DNA from: an uncultured Clostridia bacterium
GTDB lineage: Bacteria > Bacillota > Clostridia > Christensenellales > UBA1242
NCBI GenBank assembly: GCA_934747765.1
Contig: CAKVGZ010000001.1
Coordinates: 204,442 to 268,441 of the forward strand
Length of the DNA: 64,000 nt
Direction of reading: 5' to 3'
In this document: one piece after another, positions 506 through 26,491 of the stretch
How positions within the stretch are numbered: position 1 is the stretch's first letter
Layout of the letters: each line of letters begins with the position of its first letter
Position numbers and translations under genes: made by a program
The notes under the pieces: generated by a model
Databases searched by the model: none
What the model was told of the DNA's origin: nothing
What the model saw: the letters and a program-made list of their open reading frames with translations, nothing else

Positions 506-991
506 ATGATAGTATATAGACAAGCAACATTTGAGGATTTAGAGAAAATATGGAATAAGGATATAGAAAAAAATAATAATGAAGAATGTTGGGTTCGTTG
601 GAAACATCAATACATAGATTATAATAAAACTGGCAAAGCCAAAACTTTTGTTGTGCTAGATGACAATAACCTTATTGGACAAATAACTATTCTCTTTTCA
701 ACAGAGTGCTCAGCAGTTAAAAATCGACCAATGCTTTGTGATGGAAAATCCATAGCAAACATGAATGCATTTAGAATAGACGAAAAATATGAGGGTAAAG
801 GATACATATCTAAACTTGTAAAAATGGCTGAACAATATGCAAAAGAAAAAGGAATGAAATTTTTGACGATTGGTAGCGAAGCAAAAGAAAGCAGAAATCT
901 AGCGATATATTTGCATTTTGGCTATACAAAGTTTATAACAAGTTTTGTTGAAGATAATGAACTAGTTCTGTTTTATGGCAAATATATTTAG
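506..991 (+). CDS. GNAT family N-acetyltransferase
   Basis: 161 aa. AGGAGAAACTG precedes the ATG. The acetyl-CoA pocket motif 'RIDEKYEGKGYISKLVKMAEQYAKEKG' (Q/R-x-x-G-x-G/A type) is present, and size and layout fit GNAT. Confidence 0.6.
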   Translation: MIVYRQATFEDLEKIWNKDIEKNNNEECWVRWKHQYIDYNKTGKAKTFVVLDDNNLIGQITILFSTECSAVKNRPMLCDGKSIANMNAFRIDEKYEGKGYISKLVKMAEQYAKEKGMKFLTIGSEAKESRNLAIYLHFGYTKFITSFVEDNELVLFYGKYI

Positions 992-1113
992 CCATATTAC
1001 AAGGAGAGATTATGAAACATTTTTTCAATTTACTACACCTATTGAATTTTTAACTAAAAATACAAAACGCGAGAGTAAACTACTACGAAGCGAAAGTAAA
1101 ATTGCGTAAAAAA

Positions 1114-1145
1114 AGACCGATAGTCATAAAAACAAATATCGGTCT
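1114..1145 (-). terminator. Rho-independent terminator of the minus-strand cassette
   Basis: AGACCGATA / TATCGGTCT 9-bp stem. On the minus strand it is followed by TTTTTTT, about 55 nt downstream of the stop at 1200. Confidence 0.75.
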
Positions 1146-1199
1146 AATTCTTTCGTAAACTCTCTAAAACTGGTACATTTGCTGTCAATTGCTGTCTAA

Positions 1200-1976
1200 T
1201 TATTTACATGGAATCAATTTAAATCTTTTCGAAACTTTTTTTCCATATTCTCCTATTAATTTAAATGCCAAATATGAACAACACAAATTTTTAACAGAAA
1301 AACTTGTAAAAAATTTTTCGCCAAAATTAAATTTTGTTTCTAGTAAATTTAATTTATCGTCATACCATTCTATTTTATTAGTTTTGTCACAAGTTATAGA
1401 TATGGTTCCTTCATAATTGTTAATGTTTATATCTAAAATTCTAGGTGAAAAATCACATTCATTTTTAAGCAAGTTTATTTCATTTTCTTGATATTCTGAT
1501 GTTATTAATGGTATGTAAACTTCTTTAATTTCAATGTCCTTTCCTCCAAACTTTTCTAAATTTGCTACCATTTTCCATCTATAAATTCTATTCATTTCTT
1601 CAAATTCCATTTGCGCTTTAGCTAAGTATGATACGAATTCCATTTCATTGCAATTGTTTACTTTCATAAAATGCTTTTTAGCGTTTTCGCCAAAACCTAG
1701 CCTTTGCGAATTTCTTATGTGTTTAACTCCATGGCATTTGCTACACAAAGCAATGATGTCAACTAATGTTTGAGTTTTTGTTTCTATGTTAAAATCCCAT
1801 ACCTCGTGAGCATCCAAATCATCTGTTTCGTAGCCACAAATAGCACATTTATGATTTGCTTTGTCATAGCAGGCTTGTCTTAAAACACCCCAGTCTTTTT
1901 TAGACAGAGTTCTACTAAAATCGTTTCCCCAAGCACCTTTAGGCAATAATTCAATTTTTAATTTCAAATCTTTCAT
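1200..1976 (-). CDS. HNH-like Zn-finger nuclease-domain protein with an uncharacterised ~150-aa C-terminal domain
   Basis: 258 aa. The N-terminal ~95 aa carry C-x2-C (CAICG) ... DAHEVW ... C-x2-C-H-x2-K-H (CSKCHGVKH), i.e. a beta-beta-alpha-Me/HNH-type arrangement. I do not recognise the C-terminal half. The start lies 9 nt after the stop of the upstream DUF4417 gene. Confidence 0.5.
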   Translation of the reverse strand: MKDLKLKIELLPKGAWGNDFSRTLSKKDWGVLRQACYDKANHKCAICGYETDDLDAHEVWDFNIETKTQTLVDIIALCSKCHGVKHIRNSQRLGFGENAKKHFMKVNNCNEMEFVSYLAKAQMEFEEMNRIYRWKMVANLEKFGGKDIEIKEVYIPLITSEYQENEINLLKNECDFSPRILDININNYEGTISITCDKTNKIEWYDDKLNLLETKFNFGEKFFTSFSVKNLCCSYLAFKLIGEYGKKVSKRFKLIPCK

Positions 1977-1984
1977 CCCAATAC

Positions 1985-2716
1985 CTACCTTGTCGGATAT
2001 AACTCATTAGCGAGATATTTCCTCATATAGTTGTCAAATCCCATTTTTGCAATTAACTCATATTGGTCAAATGGATTAATAACTTTAATATTGCCAGTCA
2101 TCTCGTCAAATGGTGTTCCGTAACAAATAATTCCAGCAGGTTTAATAACTTCTAACATTTTATTATAACTTTTCATAAATTCATGTTTGTATTCTTCTCT
2201 GCAATATGTAGAAACAGCAACTACAGAACCCTGTTCTATTCCATCAAAACAAAAATCATAACTATCACTGCCAGCACAGCAAACTGTAGGTATTACTTTC
2301 ATTCCATGTTTTTGGAAAAAGGCACCACACCATCTATTTTTAAATGTGCTATAAATTTGAAGAGCCCTTGGCATATCCCAATACAAACTAAACTCTGGAG
2401 ATAACACCGCGTAGTATTGTGCCAATTTTTCCATAGCCAATTCTGGTTTTTCGTAAACATTTTCAAATAACCAATCATAAGTAAAGAAGTGAATTGTTTT
2501 ATTTTTGTTATCTTCATCATTAAGTTTCGTTTTTGTGTAATTCCATAAATCAATTTTATTTAAATCTATTTCTTGTTTCCTAATTAGTGGCATATTGTAT
2601 TTGCCAACTGTTATAAATTCATTTCTCACAAGTTTAAGTTTTTTTGTTAATTTTTCCTTTTCATATTCAGTTTTTTCTTGTGTAAAATTGTTATCTACTT
2701 CATATTTTTCTTTCAT
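1985..2716 (-). CDS. DUF4417 domain protein
   Basis: 243 aa. 'IHFFTYDWLFENVYEKPE...VLSPEFSLYWDMPRALQIYSTFKNRWCGAFFQKHGMKVIPTV...DFCFDGIEQGSVVAVS' matches my memory of the DUF4417 (PF14386) signature seen in phage/plasmid contexts. AGGAG lies upstream of the ATG. Confidence 0.6.
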   Translation of the reverse strand: MKEKYEVDNNFTQEKTEYEKEKLTKKLKLVRNEFITVGKYNMPLIRKQEIDLNKIDLWNYTKTKLNDEDNKNKTIHFFTYDWLFENVYEKPELAMEKLAQYYAVLSPEFSLYWDMPRALQIYSTFKNRWCGAFFQKHGMKVIPTVCCAGSDSYDFCFDGIEQGSVVAVSTYCREEYKHEFMKSYNKMLEVIKPAGIICYGTPFDEMTGNIKVINPFDQYELIAKMGFDNYMRKYLANELYPTR

Positions 2717-2750
2717 AAAAAACTCCTTACAAAAAAATCATAGGTTAAAT

Positions 2751-3097
2751 TTAATTCAACTTATGATTTTTATAATTTTTTTCGTAATATTTTCTTGCTA
2801 AATCAATCGCTTTAAAGCAGGTATTGTCAGCATTCAGAATTTCTTCTTTATTCTCTTCCCAAAATTTCTTATATTGATTTAACTCATTTCGTTGACACCG
2901 CCCATATAATCTGGTTTTTCGTTTTGAATATCATCATCTTCCCAGCCACAAACCATGCATGTGTCGTTAATAGAGTTTATATCTCCTATGCAGCATATTT
3001 TAAATTTGTGATGGCGTGTTTCAATATTAATTCTTTTAATTGTTTTATTATTAACACTTTTCATCTTTTTATCATTTATTATTTTTAAATTTGTCAA
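2751..3097 (-). pseudogene. CPCC-family cysteine-rich protein paralog, disrupted by a 1-nt deletion
   Basis: The 72-aa ORF ends ...CGWEDDDIQNEKPDYMGGVNEMS*. The intact neighbour reads GAGTTTAAATCA here, while this copy reads GAGTTAAATCA (TTT->TT), which creates TAA. The -1 frame continues LNQYKKFWEENKEEILNADNTCFKAIDLARKYYEKNYKNHKLN* to 2751. Confidence 0.65.
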
Positions 3098-3371
3098 AAT
3101 ATTCTTGAGATTTTTCTATTGCATAAAATCTATTGTTTTTAAGATTTGCCAATATTTCTTCTTTATTCTCTTCCCAAAATTTCTTATATTGATTTAAACT
3201 CATTTCGTTGGCACCGCCCATATAATCTGGTTTTTCGTTTTGAATATCATCATCTTCCCAGCCACAATATGGACAAATGTCATATGAATTCTCAATATCT
3301 CTCATACCGCACACTTTACATTTGTATGGTGGATAATCTATTTCATTTTTATTTTTTATATTATTAATCAT
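3072..3371 (-). CDS. Cysteine-rich CPCC-family protein (Zn-ribbon-like)
   Basis: Signature 'CKVCG...CPYCGWEDDDIQ...PDYMGGANEMSLNQYKKFW' (PF14206-like). The start is taken at MINNIKN because AAAGGAGAAAAT precedes that ATG. The track's upstream extension overlaps the previous gene. Confidence 0.7.
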   Translation of the reverse strand: MINNIKNKNEIDYPPYKCKVCGMRDIENSYDICPYCGWEDDDIQNEKPDYMGGANEMSLNQYKKFWEENKEEILANLKNNRFYAIEKSQEYFDKFKNNK

Positions 3372-3382
3372 ATTTTCTCCTT

Positions 3383-3715
3383 TTAATTCCAATGGGCTCC
3401 CCACTTTTCATATTGTTCATAAAAATACTCTATTCCATCTTTCGGTGGGAAATATGTTACTATTTTACCATCTCTAGAAATTATCATAAATTCATTTGTT
3501 TCTTTATTGTACTTATACGTTGAATAATGTTTTAATTCATTTGCAGTAAAAGATATTATATTGTCATTTTCTTCCATTGCGAATTCTTTTGCTTTTTTTG
3601 AATAGCTCTGAATATTATTTTCAAACCCCATTTGCTTGCCATGTCTTTTATAATGGTCAACTTCAGCATATTCGCTTGTCCAGTATTCGGCATAAGTACT
3701 AGGACCTTTCTCCAT
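3383..3715 (-). CDS. Hypothetical 110-aa alpha+beta protein, possibly a stand-alone RNase-toxin-like (BECR-type) domain
   Basis: The ORF has no competing frame. 'DHYKRHGKQMGF..SYSKKAKEF' is followed by 'TNEFMIISRDGKIVTYFPPKDGIEYF', which resembles C-terminal nuclease modules of polymorphic/MuF toxins as I remember them. The functional call is weak. Confidence 0.4.
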   Translation of the reverse strand: MEKGPSTYAEYWTSEYAEVDHYKRHGKQMGFENNIQSYSKKAKEFAMEENDNIISFTANELKHYSTYKYNKETNEFMIISRDGKIVTYFPPKDGIEYFYEQYEKWGAHWN

Positions 3716-3745
3716 TTATTATATCATACCCCCTTTTAGAATGCA

Positions 3746-3780
3746 AAAGGTTGAAGAAACAAAATATTTCTTCAACCTTT
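3746..3780. terminator. Perfect 14-bp stem hairpin, bidirectional terminator-like, with no obvious gene to terminate
   Basis: AAAGGTTGAAGAAA-caaaata-TTTCTTCAACCTTT, flanked by A-run and T-run. It sits 31 nt upstream of the 3715 start codon. Confidence 0.6.
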
Positions 3781-3822
3781 TTACTTGCAGTCTAACTTAA
3801 GATTTTTCAAAGTCAATATTTG

Positions 3823-3838
3823 TGTGACACTTTTCACA
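3823..3838. promoter_or_regulatory. Perfect CRP/FNR-family consensus box TGTGA-N6-TCACA
   Basis: Read directly: tgtga cacttt tcaca in the divergent intergenic region. Confidence 0.5.
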
Positions 3839-3914
3839 TCTCAAAATCCTTTTCTTGTTTGCGTTCTTGCAAAAAATTTGGTGCAAAATTTTTGCAAAAA
3901 GTGTTAATTTTATT

Positions 3915-3942
3915 TTGACTTCGGGGGGGGGTAGGTTATTCT
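3915..3942 (+). promoter_or_regulatory. Candidate sigma-A promoter of the SPFH operon with a G9 homopolymer inside the spacer
   Basis: TTGACT (3915-3920), then a 16-nt spacer tcGGGGGGGGGtaggt, then TATTCT (3937-3942). AAAGGAGG and ATG 3968 lie downstream. Confidence 0.4.
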
Positions 3943-3967
3943 TTCATTGTAGATAAAGGAGGAAATA

Positions 3968-4411
3968 ATGTTTTTATTAGGGAATGTTGCTGAATTTTTC
4001 ACAAACAAAGATAATATATGGCTGATAGTAGGAATTGGATTGGCAATTTTGTTGGTGATTGTTTGTTTGATTATATTCATAGCAAAACGCAGAAAAATCA
4101 AAAGAACTGGCATAAAAGAAGTTGGTGGAGTGAGATATTCGGCAGAAAGCGACGTGCAAAATGACGACGGCAGTGTTAACATGACCTATCAAAAAGGCGA
4201 CGTGATGATTGCACGAAACGTGACAGAAGTTGCGGGCATAAAGAACAAAGTCAAACCGGGCAAATACACAATTCTTTCAACCAACGAGGTTATGGACAAG
4301 ATAAATGTGCGCATTGGCACATATGTTCGTGAGGTGGAACATGGCGGACAAATAGTGTTGGCAGAAGGTGAGAGCATTACGCCAGTGAGCAACGCAATAA
4401 TTTTGAGATAA
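3968..4411 (+). CDS. Single-pass membrane protein, YdjH-like partner of the SPFH protein
   Basis: 147 aa. One N-terminal TM (IWLIVGIGLAILLVIVCLIIFI), then a basic stop-transfer and a beta-rich soluble domain. Strong RBS. First gene of a 3-gene operon with 10-21 nt gaps. Confidence 0.5.
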   Translation: MFLLGNVAEFFTNKDNIWLIVGIGLAILLVIVCLIIFIAKRRKIKRTGIKEVGGVRYSAESDVQNDDGSVNMTYQKGDVMIARNVTEVAGIKNKVKPGKYTILSTNEVMDKINVRIGTYVREVEHGGQIVLAEGESITPVSNAIILR

Positions 4412-4421
4412 GGAGAAAATA

Positions 4422-5468
4422 ATGGGATTATTTAGTTTTTTGAAAAACAACACCTTAAAAGTGATTGAATGGTTGGATGACAGCAAAAACACAATAGTGT
4501 ATCGTTATCCAATGGATGGCAGACGTATAATGTTTGGAAGCAAACTGACAGTTCGTGCTAGCCAAATTGCAGTTTTTGTTAACAAGGGCAAAGTGGCGGA
4601 CGTGTTCCAACCTGGAATATACACTTTGGCAACATCAAACTTGCCAATTTTGACTCAGCTTTTATCCTTTCCATATGGCTTTAAGTCGCCTTTTTACAGC
4701 GAAGTTTATTTCATAAACACAAAGCAATTTGCAAACCAAAAATGGGGAACAAGCAATCCGATTGCTATGCGCGATAAAGAGTTTGGAAATATTCGAATTA
4801 GGGCTTTTGGAAAATTTTCATTTAAGGTTGACAATGCGGAAATATTTTTAAACGAATTGTTTGGCACAAACTCAACGTTTGTCACTGAAGACATCACAAA
4901 TTATCTAAAAAGCATGCTTGTGTCGGGCATCAGCGACACAATTGCCGAGTCAAAAGTGTCGGCGCTTGACCTTGCTTGCAATTTATCAGAGTTTAATGAG
5001 GTTGTGAAAGCAAGTCTTTCAGAAAAATTTGCGGAACTTGGTTTGAAACTTGCAAATCTTGTTATCGAAAACATTTCTTTCCCAGAGGAAATTGAGAAAG
5101 CTCTTGACACACGTAGCAGTATGGGCATTCTTAGCGACAAGATGGACACGTATGTCAAATATCAAACGGCCAATGCAATGAGAGATGCTGCAAACAATCC
5201 GAATGGTGGCTTTGTTAATGCCGGAGTGGGAATTGGTGCTGGATTTGCCATAAACAACATGATGAAAGATAGCCTTTCTCAAAACAATGAACCAAACATG
5301 GCAAAAAAACATTGCACAAATTGTGGGGCAGAAATGAAAAAGGGAGCAAAATTCTGTCCAGAATGTGGCGAAAAACAAATGTCTGCTGAAGGAGTTTGTC
5401 CAGAATGTGGCAACAAAGTGTCACCAAAAGCTAAATTCTGTGGAAACTGCGGGGCAAAATTAAAATAA
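4422..5468 (+). CDS. SPFH/band-7 domain protein (COG4260 'virion core protein'-like, YdjI-like) fused to C-terminal zinc ribbons
   Basis: 348 aa. The N-terminus 'GLFSFLKN..LKVIEW.D....IVYRYPMDG..I..GSKLTVRASQIAVFV.KGK' is typical of YdjI-type SPFH proteins. The C-terminus has three C-x2-C...C-x2-C ribbons (CTNCG..CPECG; CPECG..CGNCG). Confidence 0.8.
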   Translation: MGLFSFLKNNTLKVIEWLDDSKNTIVYRYPMDGRRIMFGSKLTVRASQIAVFVNKGKVADVFQPGIYTLATSNLPILTQLLSFPYGFKSPFYSEVYFINTKQFANQKWGTSNPIAMRDKEFGNIRIRAFGKFSFKVDNAEIFLNELFGTNSTFVTEDITNYLKSMLVSGISDTIAESKVSALDLACNLSEFNEVVKASLSEKFAELGLKLANLVIENISFPEEIEKALDTRSSMGILSDKMDTYVKYQTANAMRDAANNPNGGFVNAGVGIGAGFAINNMMKDSLSQNNEPNMAKKHCTNCGAEMKKGAKFCPECGEKQMSAEGVCPECGNKVSPKAKFCGNCGAKLK

Positions 5469-5489
5469 ACTACGGAGCAAGATTGAATA

Positions 5490-6515
5490 ATGTCAAAATT
5501 TATTAAGTGTGAGAACTGCGGAAACAGTTTTAGTTATGCGCCTGATTTAAACTGTCTTGTGTGTGAGCATTGTGGCTCCAAAGCCTCTTTTGAACAATCC
5601 ACATTTGGTGGCAAAAAACCACTCGACACAACCATTTCAAATAGTTTGGGTGGGGTAAGAGTGTGTCCTGTGTGCGGAGCAAAAGACACGTTTGAAGAAA
5701 ATAATGTGTCGGCGAACTGTGCCTATTGTGGCACACCGCTTGTTGTGGAAAGTTTTAAAAACAATATTGACGCAATAATTCCTTTTTCAATTACAAAAAA
5801 AGGTGCTGTTGATAGTTATAAAAAGTGGCTTCATGGTCGCATTTGGGCGCCAAAGGCACTCAAAAAACTTGCAAAAACTGGTGATTTTGAAGGATATTAT
5901 TTGCCAGTGTGGGCGTATGATGCAGATGTGAACACATCTTATTCTGGCATGATGGTGGAAGCTGGTGAAACATTTATGCCAAACAATTATGCAAATGCGG
6001 GCTTGAAGACAAATGCAAAAAGGCGACCTGTGCATGGAAACCGAAGTGACAAATTTGTTAACACAATTGTGGCAGGGAACAATAATTTGTCTAATAAAAT
6101 TCTTCAAGATTTAGAACCATTTGACTATTCGCGCCTGAGAGTATACAGAGATGAATACATATTTGGACTTCATGTCGACAATTTTACTTACAGTGCAACT
6201 GAAGGTTTTAATATGGCGCAAGATGAAATGAAATCTGCCATTCGTGACCGAATTGTTCGAACACATTCCACACCCAAAGAGCATCTTGAAGGTCTTGAGA
6301 TGTTCCACAGTTTTGAAAATGTGAAACAAGCAAGATATTTGCTTCCTATGTGGAGTGCTTATTACACTTACAAAAGCAAAAAATATATGATTAATGTCAA
6401 TGGGAGCACAGGTAAAATTAAAGGAAAGGCTCCTGTTTCAAAATGGAAAGTGTTCTTTGCAGTTATGTTTGGTTTGGCAATTATTGGCTTGATTGCTTGG
6501 CTTATATTAAAATGA
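5490..6515 (+). CDS. Zinc-ribbon protein with C-terminal TM anchor (YdjG-like)
   Basis: 341 aa. Two N-terminal ribbons (CENCG..CEHCG; CPVCG..CAYCG) and the C-terminal TM 'VFFAVMFGLAIIGLIAWLIL'. Operonic with the SPFH gene. Confidence 0.6.
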   Translation: MSKFIKCENCGNSFSYAPDLNCLVCEHCGSKASFEQSTFGGKKPLDTTISNSLGGVRVCPVCGAKDTFEENNVSANCAYCGTPLVVESFKNNIDAIIPFSITKKGAVDSYKKWLHGRIWAPKALKKLAKTGDFEGYYLPVWAYDADVNTSYSGMMVEAGETFMPNNYANAGLKTNAKRRPVHGNRSDKFVNTIVAGNNNLSNKILQDLEPFDYSRLRVYRDEYIFGLHVDNFTYSATEGFNMAQDEMKSAIRDRIVRTHSTPKEHLEGLEMFHSFENVKQARYLLPMWSAYYTYKSKKYMINVNGSTGKIKGKAPVSKWKVFFAVMFGLAIIGLIAWLILK

Positions 6516-6520
6516 ATTTA

Positions 6521-6546
6521 AAAAATCCCGTCAGGGATTTTTTTTC
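6521..6546 (+). terminator. Rho-independent terminator of the SPFH operon
   Basis: AAAAATCCC-gtca-GGGATTTTT plus a T-run. Confidence 0.8.
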
Positions 6547-6643
6547 TCCACAAAGTTTTGCCTTTAGAAAAATGTTTATTCAATAAAACACTTTTTTTGT
6601 TGTGAGGGAATATTATGATTTAGACTTACAAAGGAGGGAAAAT

Positions 6644-7204
6644 ATGTTTTGTTTTAATTCTTGCGGATGCAACAGAAATTTTTGTTGCGGAGGCAATTGG
6701 AGCAATGGGGTTGTTGTTAGAAATCCATTAACAGGCCCAACAGGTCCAACCGGCCCAACTGGCCCAACTGGCGCAACAGGTCCAACCGGCCCAACGGGAC
6801 CAACGGGTGTGCTTTCAAACATTAATGCAACCGTTGTTGAAACTGCTGCACAAGCGCTAACCACTGGCACAGCATTGACACTTGGAACAACAGTGACAAA
6901 CAACGGAATGGTTGTTGGTGGAAATTCAATCACCATTCCATCGACGGGAACCTATTTGGTCAGTTTTGGAACCAACACGGCAACTGCTGCTGCAGGAGCA
7001 GATAATGTTGGAATTGGTGTTAATGGAGTTGTTGATGCAAACACAAGACGAACTTTAACAACAACGCAAGGAACATCTGGGACTTATGTTCTTGACTTGA
7101 CTGCTGACGATGAGCTGACACTTGTTCCAACTGTCACTTCGGCAACAAATCTTGGTGGAACAGGTGGACCTAGTGCATTCTTGACTGCAGTTAAAATAGG
7201 CTAA
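6644..7204 (+). CDS. Collagen-like (GxT repeat) spore-surface/exosporium BclA-like glycoprotein
   Basis: AAGGAGGG RBS before ATG 6644. There are eight G-P/A-T triplets ([25 protein letters not shown]), then a ~135-aa T/G/V-rich beta domain like the BclA C1q/TNF-like C-terminus. The N-terminus is Cys-rich ([15 protein letters not shown]). Confidence 0.75.
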
Positions 7205-7205
7205 C

Positions 7206-7240
7206 AAAAATTCTCCAACTCTAAGTTGGAGAATTTTTCT
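7206..7240 (+). terminator. Rho-independent terminator
   Basis: AAAAATTCTCCAACT-cta-AGTTGGAGAATTTTT. Confidence 0.85.
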
Positions 7241-7290
7241 TTTATTTTTCAGACAGATGGTGTATAATGATTGAAAACAAAGGAGAAAAG

Positions 7291-7872
7291 ATGGATTACA
7301 AAGAAGAGTTTTTGAAAATCTACAAAGAAAACATCAAAAGAGAAGGTGCAGACAAACTTTTGGAATGGCTTGAAAAAAGTGATTTTTTTTGCGCTCCAGC
7401 TTCAACAAGGTTTCACAGTTGTCACGAAGGTGGACTTTGTGAGCACTCGGTGAAAGTTTATAATCGTTTTTTGAATATTATTAAATCGGAATATGGCGAA
7501 AATTTTTCCGAAAAAGTGTCGCCAGAAACAATTGCTCTTGTTGCGCTTTTGCACGACGTATGCAAGGTCAACACCTATAAGGTTGAAATGAGGAATGTGA
7601 AAGAAGACGGTGTTTGGGTTCAAAAACCTTATTTCACTGTTGACGACCATCTTCCATACGGGCACGGAGAAAAATCTGTTTATATAATAAACGGCTTCAC
7701 AAGATTAACTCGCGAAGAAGCAATTGCTATAAACTGGCACATGGGTGGATTTGACACGAGAGTTCAAGGTGGGTCATATTCACTAAAAGATGCTTTCACA
7801 AATTTCCCTTTGGCATTGCTTTTTCACATTGCTGACGTGGAGGCAACATATTTGGATGAAACTCAAAATTAA
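7291..7872 (+). CDS. HD-domain phosphohydrolase
   Basis: The H...HD motif 'ALLHDVCK' is present, plus downstream His residues. Start set at ATG 7291 (AAAGGAGAAAAG RBS). An extended -10 TGTATAAT at 7261-7268 overlaps the track's upstream ATG. Confidence 0.7.
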   Translation: MDYKEEFLKIYKENIKREGADKLLEWLEKSDFFCAPASTRFHSCHEGGLCEHSVKVYNRFLNIIKSEYGENFSEKVSPETIALVALLHDVCKVNTYKVEMRNVKEDGVWVQKPYFTVDDHLPYGHGEKSVYIINGFTRLTREEAIAINWHMGGFDTRVQGGSYSLKDAFTNFPLALLFHIADVEATYLDETQN

Positions 7873-7930
7873 TTTGAGTTTTTTTATGTAAAGTATTTCC
7901 AAAAATAAAAATTGATGATATAATATCTTT

Positions 7931-8854
7931 ATGAAATTTGTTAGGCGACACAAAAAAATGATTATTATTTTGTCAGTTTTGCTGGCTCTTTTAATCACGG
8001 TTGTTATTTTGATGTTCACCTTGTTTTCGCTTAAAAATGTTGAGTTAAATTTCAAGACTGAAACACTTAATGTGTCTGAAGGCATGAAAGATGAAATTCA
8101 GGCTGAAGTTTTAAAAACTGGTGGGTCTGTTTTGTTTGTTGGAAAAGAAAAAATCATAAAAGACCTTGAAAAAAAGTTTCCATACATAAAAATTGTTAAC
8201 ATAGAAACTCAAATTCCAAACAAGTTTGTTGTTCATTGTGTTGAACGCGAAGAACTTTTTGCAGTTCAATCTCAAGGAAAAACATATTTTCTTGACGAAG
8301 AATTTAAGATTTTGAGAATTGAATCTTCATCCTATGAAAGTCAAGAAGGCATGCCTGTTGTGCTGGAATTTGAAAACCTTATGTATGACGAAAGTGATCC
8401 AACAACAATAAAACCTTACACATTAGAACTAAATTTGGGTGCGAGTGAAGAAGGACAATTTTTAACTTTGAAATCTTCCAGCGAAGCAGGTGCATATTTT
8501 GCCGAAAAACTTGAATCAATTTCCAAATCCATTTTAACGTCTTTTGAAGAAAATAACCGTGGAATTGCAGACGTTCGTTCAATGTATAAAAAGTTCAAAA
8601 TTTTCTATTATGAAGAAGTCGTTGAAACGAGTTCATATTGGCATTTGTGTTTGAGGCTTGTTGGCAAAGATGGATATGTTTGTGAAATTAGAGATGCAGA
8701 CAACCATTTGCCTGAAAAATTTCAAATTATGTTTCAGGCTTTTTCCGAAGTTCAAAAAGAAAATTTGACCTATTTGAAAAACTCAAAATTGATTGTTTAC
8801 AAAAACGGCTCTAACTACAAATACTTTTTTGAAAAAATTACGGAGGGAACATGA
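7931..8854 (+). CDS. Cell division protein FtsQ/DivIB-like (TM + POTRA)
   Basis: Basic N-terminus, one TM, and a POTRA-like segment 'LKNVELNF...VLFVGKEKIIKDLEKKFPYIKIVNIETQIPNKFVVHCVEREELFAV'. It sits upstream of ftsA-ftsZ. Confidence 0.6.
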   Translation: MKFVRRHKKMIIILSVLLALLITVVILMFTLFSLKNVELNFKTETLNVSEGMKDEIQAEVLKTGGSVLFVGKEKIIKDLEKKFPYIKIVNIETQIPNKFVVHCVEREELFAVQSQGKTYFLDEEFKILRIESSSYESQEGMPVVLEFENLMYDESDPTTIKPYTLELNLGASEEGQFLTLKSSSEAGAYFAEKLESISKSILTSFEENNRGIADVRSMYKKFKIFYYEEVVETSSYWHLCLRLVGKDGYVCEIRDADNHLPEKFQIMFQAFSEVQKENLTYLKNSKLIVYKNGSNYKYFFEKITEGT

Positions 8855-9522
8855 AAAGAATTGGATTATCGATATTATCATTTATTTTTGCTGGGATAAT
8901 GGGACTTGCTGTTTTTTGTCCACTTGCAAGTTTCCAAGTTATCAACTCAAGCACAAAAGCAAAAGAGCAAGATATTGGCCAAAAGGCAACAACACTTTAT
9001 TTTGTTGAATCAATTTTTGTTGACGATGACAAATTGGCGCAGTCGAAAGCAGATTTGTTTGAAAAAACAAAAAAAATTAATCTTAGTGAGTTGTCGGCAA
9101 GTGAAAAGGAAAAAGAACTGTTAAATAGTGCAGAGTTAAATAGATACAACGTGTATAACTTTGCTAAACAAGAAAATTTGACTTCAACACATCGTGTTAA
9201 TTCAAATCTTCAAAACCAAATGAAAGTTGTTTCGGGGTTGACTTTTGCATTCTTCATTTCTGCCGGACTTGTTGCACTTTTGAGCCTTTTGGAAATTTTC
9301 TTCAAAAGCCATAAACTTCGCGGATTTGGCACATTGTTCACTTTTGTGACTTTGCTTCTTAGCATTGCAATGGTTGTCACAACTGAGTTTGTTTTGAAAA
9401 CAACAGAGGCAACTTGGGGAATTGTTGCATCTGTGAAATGGACAGCATATCTAATAATTGCCTACGTTGCGGTGTATATGATTGTTCGAATGATAATAAA
9501 CAAAAAACTCAAAAAATTGTGA
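8851..9522 (+). CDS. Hypothetical multi-pass membrane protein within the division cluster
   Basis: 223 aa. It has a 4-nt ATGA overlap with the ftsQ-like gene. It has an N-terminal TM, a charged coiled segment and three C-terminal TMs. No family recognised. Confidence 0.5.
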   Translation: MKRIGLSILSFIFAGIMGLAVFCPLASFQVINSSTKAKEQDIGQKATTLYFVESIFVDDDKLAQSKADLFEKTKKINLSELSASEKEKELLNSAELNRYNVYNFAKQENLTSTHRVNSNLQNQMKVVSGLTFAFFISAGLVALLSLLEIFFKSHKLRGFGTLFTFVTLLLSIAMVVTTEFVLKTTEATWGIVASVKWTAYLIIAYVAVYMIVRMIINKKLKKL

Positions 9523-25474: not shown

Positions 25475-26491
25475 ATGAAAGTTGTTATCGACACACTTGG
25501 GGGGGATTATGCGCCTTATGAAATAATAAAAGGGGCAATTGATGCGCAAAACAAACATGATGACCTTTCAATTATTTTTTGCGGAAAAGAAGATGAAATT
25601 TCCAGTTGTTTAGGAAAACTTAAATATGACAAAGAGAGAACAGAGATTGTTGATGCTCCAGACATGATTTCAAACAACGAAGTTCCAACTGTTGCAATTA
25701 AAGAAAAAAAGAATTCTTCACTTGCTGTTGCGTTTGACATTTTGAAAAAAAATGACGACGTTGTTGGTCTTGTTTCTGCCGGGAGCACTGGAGCAATTTT
25801 GGCGGGCGGATTTTTGAAAATTGGCCGAATTAAGGGTGTTTCTCGCCCTACATTATGTCCATTTTTGCCAACAAAAAAAGGTGGATATGTTCTTGTTGCC
25901 GATTGTGGAGCGAATGTTGATTGCAAGCCAATCAATCTTTGTCATTTTGCACTTATGGCAAACGAATATTATAAAGAACGTTTCGGAAAACAAAATCCAA
26001 GGGTGGCACTTTTGAGCGTTGGAACTGAGGACCACAAGGGAAACGACCTTTGCCATCAAGTTTTTCCACTTATGAAACAACTTGACATAAATTTTGTTGG
26101 AAACATGGAAGCCAGAGATGTTATGAGCGGAGATTATGATGTTGTCATCGCCGACGGATTTGCGGGCAATGTTTTGTTGAAGTCAACAGAAGGTGCGCTT
26201 AAAATCATGATGAGTGAACTTAAAAAATCGATAAAATCAAATTTCTTTTCAAAAATGGCTTCTGTTTTTATGCTTGGTGCATTCAAGAATTTGAAAAAAA
26301 CTTATGACTTCAATTCCTATGGCGGATCACCATTTTTAGGATGTAAAAAATTGATAATAAAATCACACGGCTCAAGCAAGGCAAAGGCAATTGAAGTTTC
26401 AATTGACGAAATAATAACTTTGAAAAACAAGAATCTCAACTATCGCATCGAAAAAGCAATTGAAAATGCAAAAATCAACATTGAAGAGTGA
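25475..26491 (+). CDS. plsX: Phosphate acyltransferase PlsX
   Basis: 'MKVVIDTLGGDYAP', 'SAGSTGA', 'DGFAGNVLLKSTEG'. GGAGGAAAA RBS before ATG 25475. Confidence 0.93.
   Translation: MKVVIDTLGGDYAPYEIIKGAIDAQNKHDDLSIIFCGKEDEISSCLGKLKYDKERTEIVDAPDMISNNEVPTVAIKEKKNSSLAVAFDILKKNDDVVGLVSAGSTGAILAGGFLKIGRIKGVSRPTLCPFLPTKKGGYVLVADCGANVDCKPINLCHFALMANEYYKERFGKQNPRVALLSVGTEDHKGNDLCHQVFPLMKQLDINFVGNMEARDVMSGDYDVVIADGFAGNVLLKSTEGALKIMMSELKKSIKSNFFSKMASVFMLGAFKNLKKTYDFNSYGGSPFLGCKKLIIKSHGSSKAKAIEVSIDEIITLKNKNLNYRIEKAIENAKINIEE

Follow-up and report, generated by a model that had tools for sequence, protein, structure and literature searches.

Does the length of a single guanine homopolymer set how strongly an SPFH operon of three genes is transcribed in an uncultured Clostridia bacterium of the gut? 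A run of nine G raises this question. It lies in the window (the whole 64-kb stretch of DNA analysed here), and a preliminary description had proposed it as a slipped-strand switch in the spacer of the operon promoter. The nearest genomes are uncultured Clostridia MAGs from gut metagenomes, and several contigs of the species come from Hadza gut samples.

A G tract between predicted promoter elements

The stretch 3915-3942 reads TTGACT-TC-GGGGGGGGG-TAGGT-TATTCT, with 16 nt between the -35 and -10 hexamers. Both this direct reading and a promoter scan confirm that the G9 run lies between TTGACT and TATTCT with a 16-nt spacer, as first described. The features of the region are:

3837-3967, + strand, conserved regulatory block, near invariant from 3837 in a six-strain alignment
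3864-3900, no strand assigned, 37-bp imperfect palindrome, TTCTTGCAAAAAATTTG / CAAAATTTTTGCAAAAA, with 17-nt arms that are 88% complementary and a 3-nt gap
3915-3920, + strand, predicted -35 box TTGACT, 5/6 consensus matches in promoter scans, invariant in all strains of the species
3923-3931, + strand, poly-G tract, G9 in the window and G6 to G11 elsewhere, with a G5 remnant at the L031 deletion junction
3932-3936, + strand, '-16' element, TATG-T (TRTG) in every other assembly and TAGG-T in the window
3937-3942, + strand, predicted -10 box TATTCT, 4/6 matches, with T1, A2 and T6 present

No other G or C run in the 64-kb window reaches 8 nt, and no C run exceeds 5 nt. About 0.016 G runs of at least 9 nt are expected there under both iid and first-order Markov models (34.6% G+C), and we therefore regard the tract as a real and unusual feature. 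It has the repeat length of a contingency locus (about 8 or more G/C, an outlier in its genome). The next longest G run is G7 at 25499-25505. It was overlooked in the preliminary description, which had seen no other G or C run longer than five. This run lies in the coding region of a plsX-like gene and was rejected as a second switch, since it encodes the Gly-Gly of an LGGD motif.

We predict a sigma-A-type promoter around the tract. The scan of the window gives TTGACT-16-TATTCT with 9/12 matches, and the scan of L028, which carries a G10 allele, gives TTGACT-17-TATTCT; a TG before the second hexamer is recorded for L028 and not for the window. The TTGACT/TATTCT pair is the sole one upstream of gene 1 (block from 3837 to the ATG) that passes the sigma-A scan criteria, and the tract sits between the best -35 and -10 motifs of this predicted promoter. 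The transcription start would be near 3949-3951, judging from the position of the -10 box.

The assignment of TATTCT as the -10 box is supported by a positional match in three species, 23-25 nt from the ATG. In the window, 25 nt separate the end of TATTCT from the ATG of gene 1. The corresponding distance is 23 nt for TG-a-TATTAT in front of the gene-1 homologue of the sister species (89% SPFH identity), and 25 nt in L015/L016, where the arrangement is TTGAAA-17-TAATAT preceded by TATGT. The initial placement of the tract in the spacer of a predicted operon promoter is thus supported, with this pair as the best sigma-A-type promoter by scan and its -10 box conserved in relatives.

All assemblies of the species except the window carry a TG-extended -10, TATGTTATTCT (TATG-T-TATTCT), which we take to match the Gram-positive '-16 TRTG' extended -10 motif. 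The window has G at position 3934 (TAGG) where all other assemblies have T (TATG), and the TG is thereby broken. L024, L011 and L042, which belong to the same clone as the window, also have T at 3934, and their tract is given as G10 or G11. We therefore read the G in the window as a very recent change or as an error of base calling or assembly beside the homopolymer, and the pairing of G9 with TAGG as one state of an unstable site or possibly a misread of it.

Other readings of the upstream region

The preliminary description named TGTAGATAA (~3948) as an alternative -10. We consider this unlikely, because the conserved -10 of the relatives aligns with TATTCT and the start site would lie inside the RBS; in the relatives this element occupies a leader position. 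A sigma-B-like reading (GTTTAA-N12-15-GGGTAT) has the wrong spacing, 17-21 nt by eye, and an ECF-like reading (TGCAAA...CGT) has, also by eye, either the wrong spacing or no -10 motif; both were rejected. An antisense ORF on the minus strand (3910-4182), in which the tract would encode prolines, was set aside as well: all of it runs antisense to gene 1, and its end would move with any tract change other than a multiple of three.

Another promoter may be in use, such as the weak TG-extended TAATTT at 3902-3910 or one dependent on the palindrome. The tract would in that case be part of the transcript or adjoin its start site, and would exert its influence via the 5' leader or the phasing of an activator with the -10 box rather than via -35/-10 spacing. 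The sequence TGtTAATTT is present with its TG conserved, and the 37-bp palindrome with its TGCAAAA repeats lies upstream. The activator version has a parallel in the Bordetella fim promoters, where length tunes expression through activator phasing. However, the 3902-3910 candidate is below the scan threshold (3/6 and 3/6 matches) and is degraded in the sister species (TGTTTATTT), and the position of TATTCT is common to the clear -10 boxes of the relatives. For the leader version, an Rfam search of 3600-4100 returned sub-threshold hairpin noise only, with no family, and the leader RNA fold is unremarkable (z = -1.6, not significant); we dropped the RNA-element reading on these two results. We give little credence to a different promoter and continue with the TTGACT/TATTCT pair.

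The palindrome may be the binding site of a regulator. It holds three TGCAAAA copies, with its centre about 67 nt upstream of the predicted start site, and is conserved only in part: the third copy is TTCAAAA in lineages F, G and H, which also counts against a promoter that depends on it.

The block from 3837 to the ATG, conserved in all strains of the species, has a sharp left edge. Upstream of 3836 the sequence is strain-dependent and homology is lost, and BLAST matches of other lineages begin at 3836/3837. A strain-variable island occupies 1200-3836, between an acetyltransferase gene and the SPFH promoter. At 1200-1976 it encodes a protein resembling HNH endonucleases, at 1985-2716 a nuclease-like DUF4417 protein, and in addition several small, Cys-rich CPCC paralogues whose 114-nt internal repeats lie at about 2839-2951 and 3154-3267. 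In lineage B, an AP_endonuc_2 gene takes this place. The island proteins received no defence assignment in PADLOC or PHROGs. A bidirectional terminator-like hairpin at 3745-3782, made of an A-run, an 11-bp stem (GGTTGAAGAAA/TTTCTTCAACC) and a T-run, separates the last island gene from the SPFH promoter block and accounts for weak miRNA-like Rfam matches in that region.

Tract length among strains of the species

We collected contigs of the same species by exact-protein look-ups in NCBI MAGs, ENA assemblies and Logan assemblies, and defined lineages by SNP distance over 1.9 kb. The eight lineages are at most 40 SNPs (at most 2.3%) apart. Their tracts are:

Lineage A: window G9, L024 G10, L042 G11
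Lineage B: L007 G7, L008 G7, L012 G7
Lineage C: L001 G6
Lineage D: L005 G7
Lineage E: L002 G8
Lineage F: L025 G6, L026 G6
Lineage G: L027 G10
Lineage H: L028 G10, L029 G10

The preliminary description had suggested a comparison of tract length among strains, and in that comparison the length is far from invariant. Six lengths (G6 to G11) occur in the eight lineages between conserved flanks, which is the polymorphism expected of a contingency locus, and G9, G10 and G11 occur within one clone. On a neighbour-joining tree rooted on the sister species, tract length changed independently at least four to five times, with G10 on three separate branches and G6 on two. Lineages B and D, which are sisters on this tree, both have G7, so that length carries some phylogenetic signal and the tract does not change extremely fast at the consensus level.

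The tract is the sole multi-allelic indel in a 3.6 kb alignment. Among control A/T runs of 7-8 nt in these 3.6 kb, one of five varies, and does so in one lineage. The T8 run at 7383-7390 in a downstream HD-domain gene (7267-7872) is T7 in L002, which would frameshift the gene, and other lineages have a one-base indel near its start codon (window 7271).

The sister species has a non-homopolymeric spacer, TTGGGTGGC or TTGGAGAGC, of constant length in nine contigs, with no contig breaks. Taken together, these comparisons mark the tract as derived, species-specific and hypervariable. A scan of genome contigs returned only other species, at 89% identity or less, none of which has the tract. JGI metagenome contigs yielded no match from this species, either with a DNA pattern across the tract or with an SPFH protein query, and an FtsA look-up for further contigs spanning the tract found contigs that end short of it.

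Variation within one clone and contig breaks

Clone A provides the strongest result of the comparison. L042 (Hadza, 8,543 nt) differs from window positions 942-9482 by one mismatch, at 3934, and one gap, in the tract (G11). L024 differs over 3,062 nt upstream by the same two kinds of difference only, with a G10 tract. These G9, G10 and G11 calls come from metagenome assemblies, with L042 at about 5x coverage and the L024 tract 12 nt from the contig end, and the run accession ranges indicate that several lineage-A assemblies are apparently from one study and maybe not fully independent.

Three further assemblies (ERZ27286944, ERR7746113 and ERR7738253) match the window without a single difference over 3.3-4.5 kb, and each of their contigs starts 2-8 nt downstream of the tract, which marks a break there. 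In ERZ27286944, contigs of 360 kb and 74 kb meet at the tract and overlap by about 9 nt.

Such observations could arise if polymerase or base-calling errors at poly-G produced both the length differences and the breaks around a tract of fixed length. Of nine assemblies with G8 or longer, four have a break at the tract or just after it, and the seven with G7 or shorter have none, a difference that is non-significant (p = 0.07); the low coverage of L042 and the G at 3934, contradicted by three assemblies of the same clone, also fit an artefact. Within a lineage, however, independent samples and assemblers return the same length: G7 was obtained three times in lineage B (from one Logan run and two NCBI MAGs), G6 in both assemblies of lineage F and G10 in both of lineage H, which argues against random miscalls. 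The differences span five nucleotides (G6 to G11), far above typical consensus error, and G10 is read through unbroken in three assemblies. A break is no automatic result of tract length, as the G10 tracts of lineages G and H show. We consider it very improbable that the true length is fixed.

The breaks and lengths in clone A fit a tract that is heterogeneous in length in the population, to which homopolymer error at low coverage could contribute. As a practical matter, contigs of this species tend to break at the tract, and the tract length of a single assembly should not be trusted.

The three-gene SPFH operon

The predicted promoter precedes three genes and a terminator-like hairpin:

3956-3962, + strand, RBS AAGGAGG of gene 1, by direct reading, with the ATG at 3968
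3968-4411, + strand, gene 1, 147 aa, N-terminal transmembrane helix and soluble C-terminal domain, no known family matched
4422-5468, + strand, gene 2, SPFH (Band_7_1) protein, Pfam PF13421, E = 4.9e-81
5490-6515, + strand, gene 3, 341 aa, N-terminal CxxC zinc ribbons and C-terminal transmembrane anchor, from the translation
6520-6543, no strand assigned, terminator-like hairpin AAAAAATCCCGTCAGGGATTTTTT with a T run, which closes the operon and is kept in an operon-less strain

Homologues of gene 1 stand first in the operon of related species. The SPFH protein has C-terminal double zinc ribbons (Zn_Ribbon_1 and DZR, residues 298-347), and gene 3 has weak zinc-ribbon matches only in Pfam and NCBIfam. 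The operon proteins are without assignment in NCBIfam, and a PDB sequence search with the SPFH protein returned nothing. A PADLOC search of the operon proteins gave marginal matches only (E > 0.004), and a reading of the operon as a defence system was rejected, as no catalogued family in PADLOC or NCBIfam was matched. No PspA domain was found in ten neighbouring ORFs tested.

Just past the operon terminator, 6602-7204 encodes a 200-aa protein with collagen-like repeats and weak PHROG matches to phage tail-fibre and collagen-like tail proteins. This protein is called at 186 aa, from another start, in other contigs including L003, L010 and L011, which are identical to the window there.

Operon decay in strains with short tracts

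Several strains with short tracts have a damaged operon. In lineage B (G7), a one-base deletion at about 4075, outside repeats, cuts gene 1 to 37 codons in three assemblies. In lineage F (G6; L025), a one-base deletion at about 5114, also outside repeats, cuts the SPFH protein to 252 aa. L031 (ERR11638675; a single Logan contig), at 2560-2710 of its reverse complement (window 3927-6470), has the promoter and five G joined to window position 6470 onwards: a deletion of about 2.5 kb, whose left breakpoint lies in the tract and which runs to window position 6469, removes genes 1-3 and leaves the last ~45 nt of gene 3 and the terminator hairpin. The genes are intact in lineages C (G6) and D (G7).

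The operon is thus disrupted in three of five short-tract lineages and in none of four with G8 or longer, which is suggestive of a link between a short tract and operon loss, at a non-significant one-sided Fisher p of 0.12. The pattern would also fit a dispensable operon that is repeatedly turned down or lost, and this is the kind of selective setting in which contingency loci occur.

A predicted effect of tract length on transcription

Spacer length equals tract length plus 7, which gives:

G6: 13 nt
G7: 14 nt
G8: 15 nt
G9: 16 nt
G10: 17 nt
G11: 18 nt

We propose that a slippage-prone G homopolymer arose in the spacer of the sigma-A-type promoter of the SPFH operon. With G9, G10 or G11 (16, 17 or 18 nt), TTGACT and TATTCT would be usable together. 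With G6 to G8 (13 to 15 nt), the -35 box would be out of register, and basal transcription would come from the TG-extended -10 alone. From this spacer arithmetic we expect expression to peak at G10, to be lower at G9 and G11, and to be basal at G8 or shorter. Replication slippage would change the length heritably and probably reversibly, and the tract would then act as a mutational volume control, a contingency locus.

The alleles of clone A give spacers of 16, 17 and 18 nt, within 17 ± 1, and those of lineages G and H exactly 17. Long alleles thus cluster on functional spacings, with G10 in three far-apart lineages; the 17-nt spacer foreseen for a G10 allele in the preliminary description exists in these three lineages. 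We lean towards the view that tract length tunes the SPFH operon promoter. Against this, a TRTG-extended -10 may have little need of a -35 box, so that length might matter little.

Strict on/off control is doubtful, since a TG-extended -10 should sustain a basal level of transcription whether or not the -35 box is in use. The presence of this motif in all other assemblies makes graded control the more likely form. The window, with its TG broken, would rely on the -35 box at 16 nt for expression.

A neutral mutational hotspot would offer a different account, in which a G-rich spacer drifted to a homopolymer, the TG-extended -10 suffices, and length has little or no effect on expression and is under no selection. 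The sister species drives the operon by an extended -10 with a poor -35 (TTTATG, 3/6 matches), TATG-T-TATTCT is kept in all strains except the window, and lineages C and D have intact genes despite G6 and G7. Drift of this kind does not sit well with the near-consensus -35 TTGACT, which the species gained, which is invariant, and which is in register only at G9 to G11. The G10 allele, whose spacer is exactly 17 nt long, has been kept in three divergent lineages although the tract is unstable, clone A varies only within 16-18 nt, and gene decay and deletion occur only where the tract is short. We consider neutrality unlikely.

The tract is a well-supported candidate for a contingency locus of the promoter-spacer type. 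The genes it would control speak against the contingency reading, as they are neither surface nor restriction-modification genes, the usual targets of phase variation. We put forward only tentatively, as possible but rather doubtful, that it is a true adaptive and reversible switch with which a gut commensal Clostridia bet-hedges a PspA-independent SPFH/zinc-ribbon membrane module. The signs of frequent, reversible switching are indirect: contig breaks at the tract and homoplasy of its lengths on the tree.

Relation to known systems

To our knowledge, repeat-driven phase variation has been studied almost wholly in pathogens (Neisseria, Haemophilus, Campylobacter, Helicobacter and mycoplasmas), with targets that are almost wholly surface or restriction-modification genes. 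The known switches of gut commensals are mostly invertible promoters.

The closest parallels are the spacer tracts of Neisseria meningitidis porA (poly-G), opc and fetA (poly-C), in which one-nucleotide slippage gives graded or on/off transcription. These tracts control surface antigens, the allele with a 17-nt spacer is the strongest, and switching rates and effects on expression have been measured. The tract described here is likewise a G/C homopolymer between -35 and -10 boxes. It differs in its host, an uncultured commensal Clostridia, in its target, a cytoplasmic or membrane SPFH operon, in being known from sequence alone, and in the TRTG-extended -10, which probably keeps a basal level of transcription. 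In Bordetella pertussis fim2/fim3, the register of the -10 box with the site of the activator BvgA depends on a poly-C tract that lies upstream of this box. Here too, a C/G tract would fix the register between upstream recognition elements and the -10, although an activator site, for which the palindrome at 3864-3900 is the candidate, is conjectural.

In Haemophilus influenzae hifA/hifB, the length of a TA repeat in the promoter spacer gives graded expression, or volume control (PMC7911514); that dinucleotide repeat is common to two divergent fimbriae promoters, whereas ours is a mononucleotide tract in one promoter. In Streptococcus pyogenes M28, the intergenic T tract between Spy1336/R28 and Spy1337 is polymorphic and one-nucleotide indels alter transcript levels, in an axis of virulence regulator and adhesin that was validated by isogenic mutants (PMC7098570). 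This is also a naturally polymorphic intergenic homopolymer in a Firmicute, but it is poly-T and is placed differently relative to the -35 and -10 boxes. The TATTT repeat of Staphylococcus aureus ica provides repeat-length control at or near a promoter (PMC7911514). In view of the S. pyogenes (PMC7098570) and S. aureus (PMC7911514) precedents, the original claim of novelty in a Firmicute was too broad. The mechanism is a textbook one, but host and target appear to be new: an uncultured gut commensal of the Clostridia in the first case and an SPFH/zinc-ribbon membrane module in the second.

The operon resembles Bacillus subtilis YdjGHI/SamGHI, in which a soluble zinc-finger SPFH protein is recruited by two membrane proteins (PMC8581546). 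As in pspA-ydjGHI (samGHI), there is a soluble Band-7/SPFH protein with a C-terminal zinc finger (PMC8581546; bioRxiv 10.64898/2026.02.06.704340), and the SPFH gene adjoins two genes with predicted transmembrane segments. The gene order differs, the ten neighbouring ORFs lack pspA, and the promoter is of sigma-A type by the promoter scans, with no promoter of the sigma-W (envelope-stress) type present. The one ground for the term 'membrane-stress module' in the preliminary description is the likeness to YdjGHI of B. subtilis.

A promoter dial of poly-G in this uncultured Clostridia species, known from human gut metagenomes, would take the mechanism into an ecological and taxonomic setting, and to a class of target, that are new for it. 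If the tract is a true switch, carrying the module would come at a cost or do harm under some conditions, for example through exploitation by phage or toxicity in some hosts, and such a burden would explain why the operon is repeatedly turned down, frameshifted or deleted. It would then also offer, as the first phase-variable SPFH system, a natural entry to the role of these widespread and poorly understood modules. The natural alleles, which run from optimal to non-functional spacing, and the lineages that have lost genes offer a route to weighing the benefit of the SPFH module against its cost.
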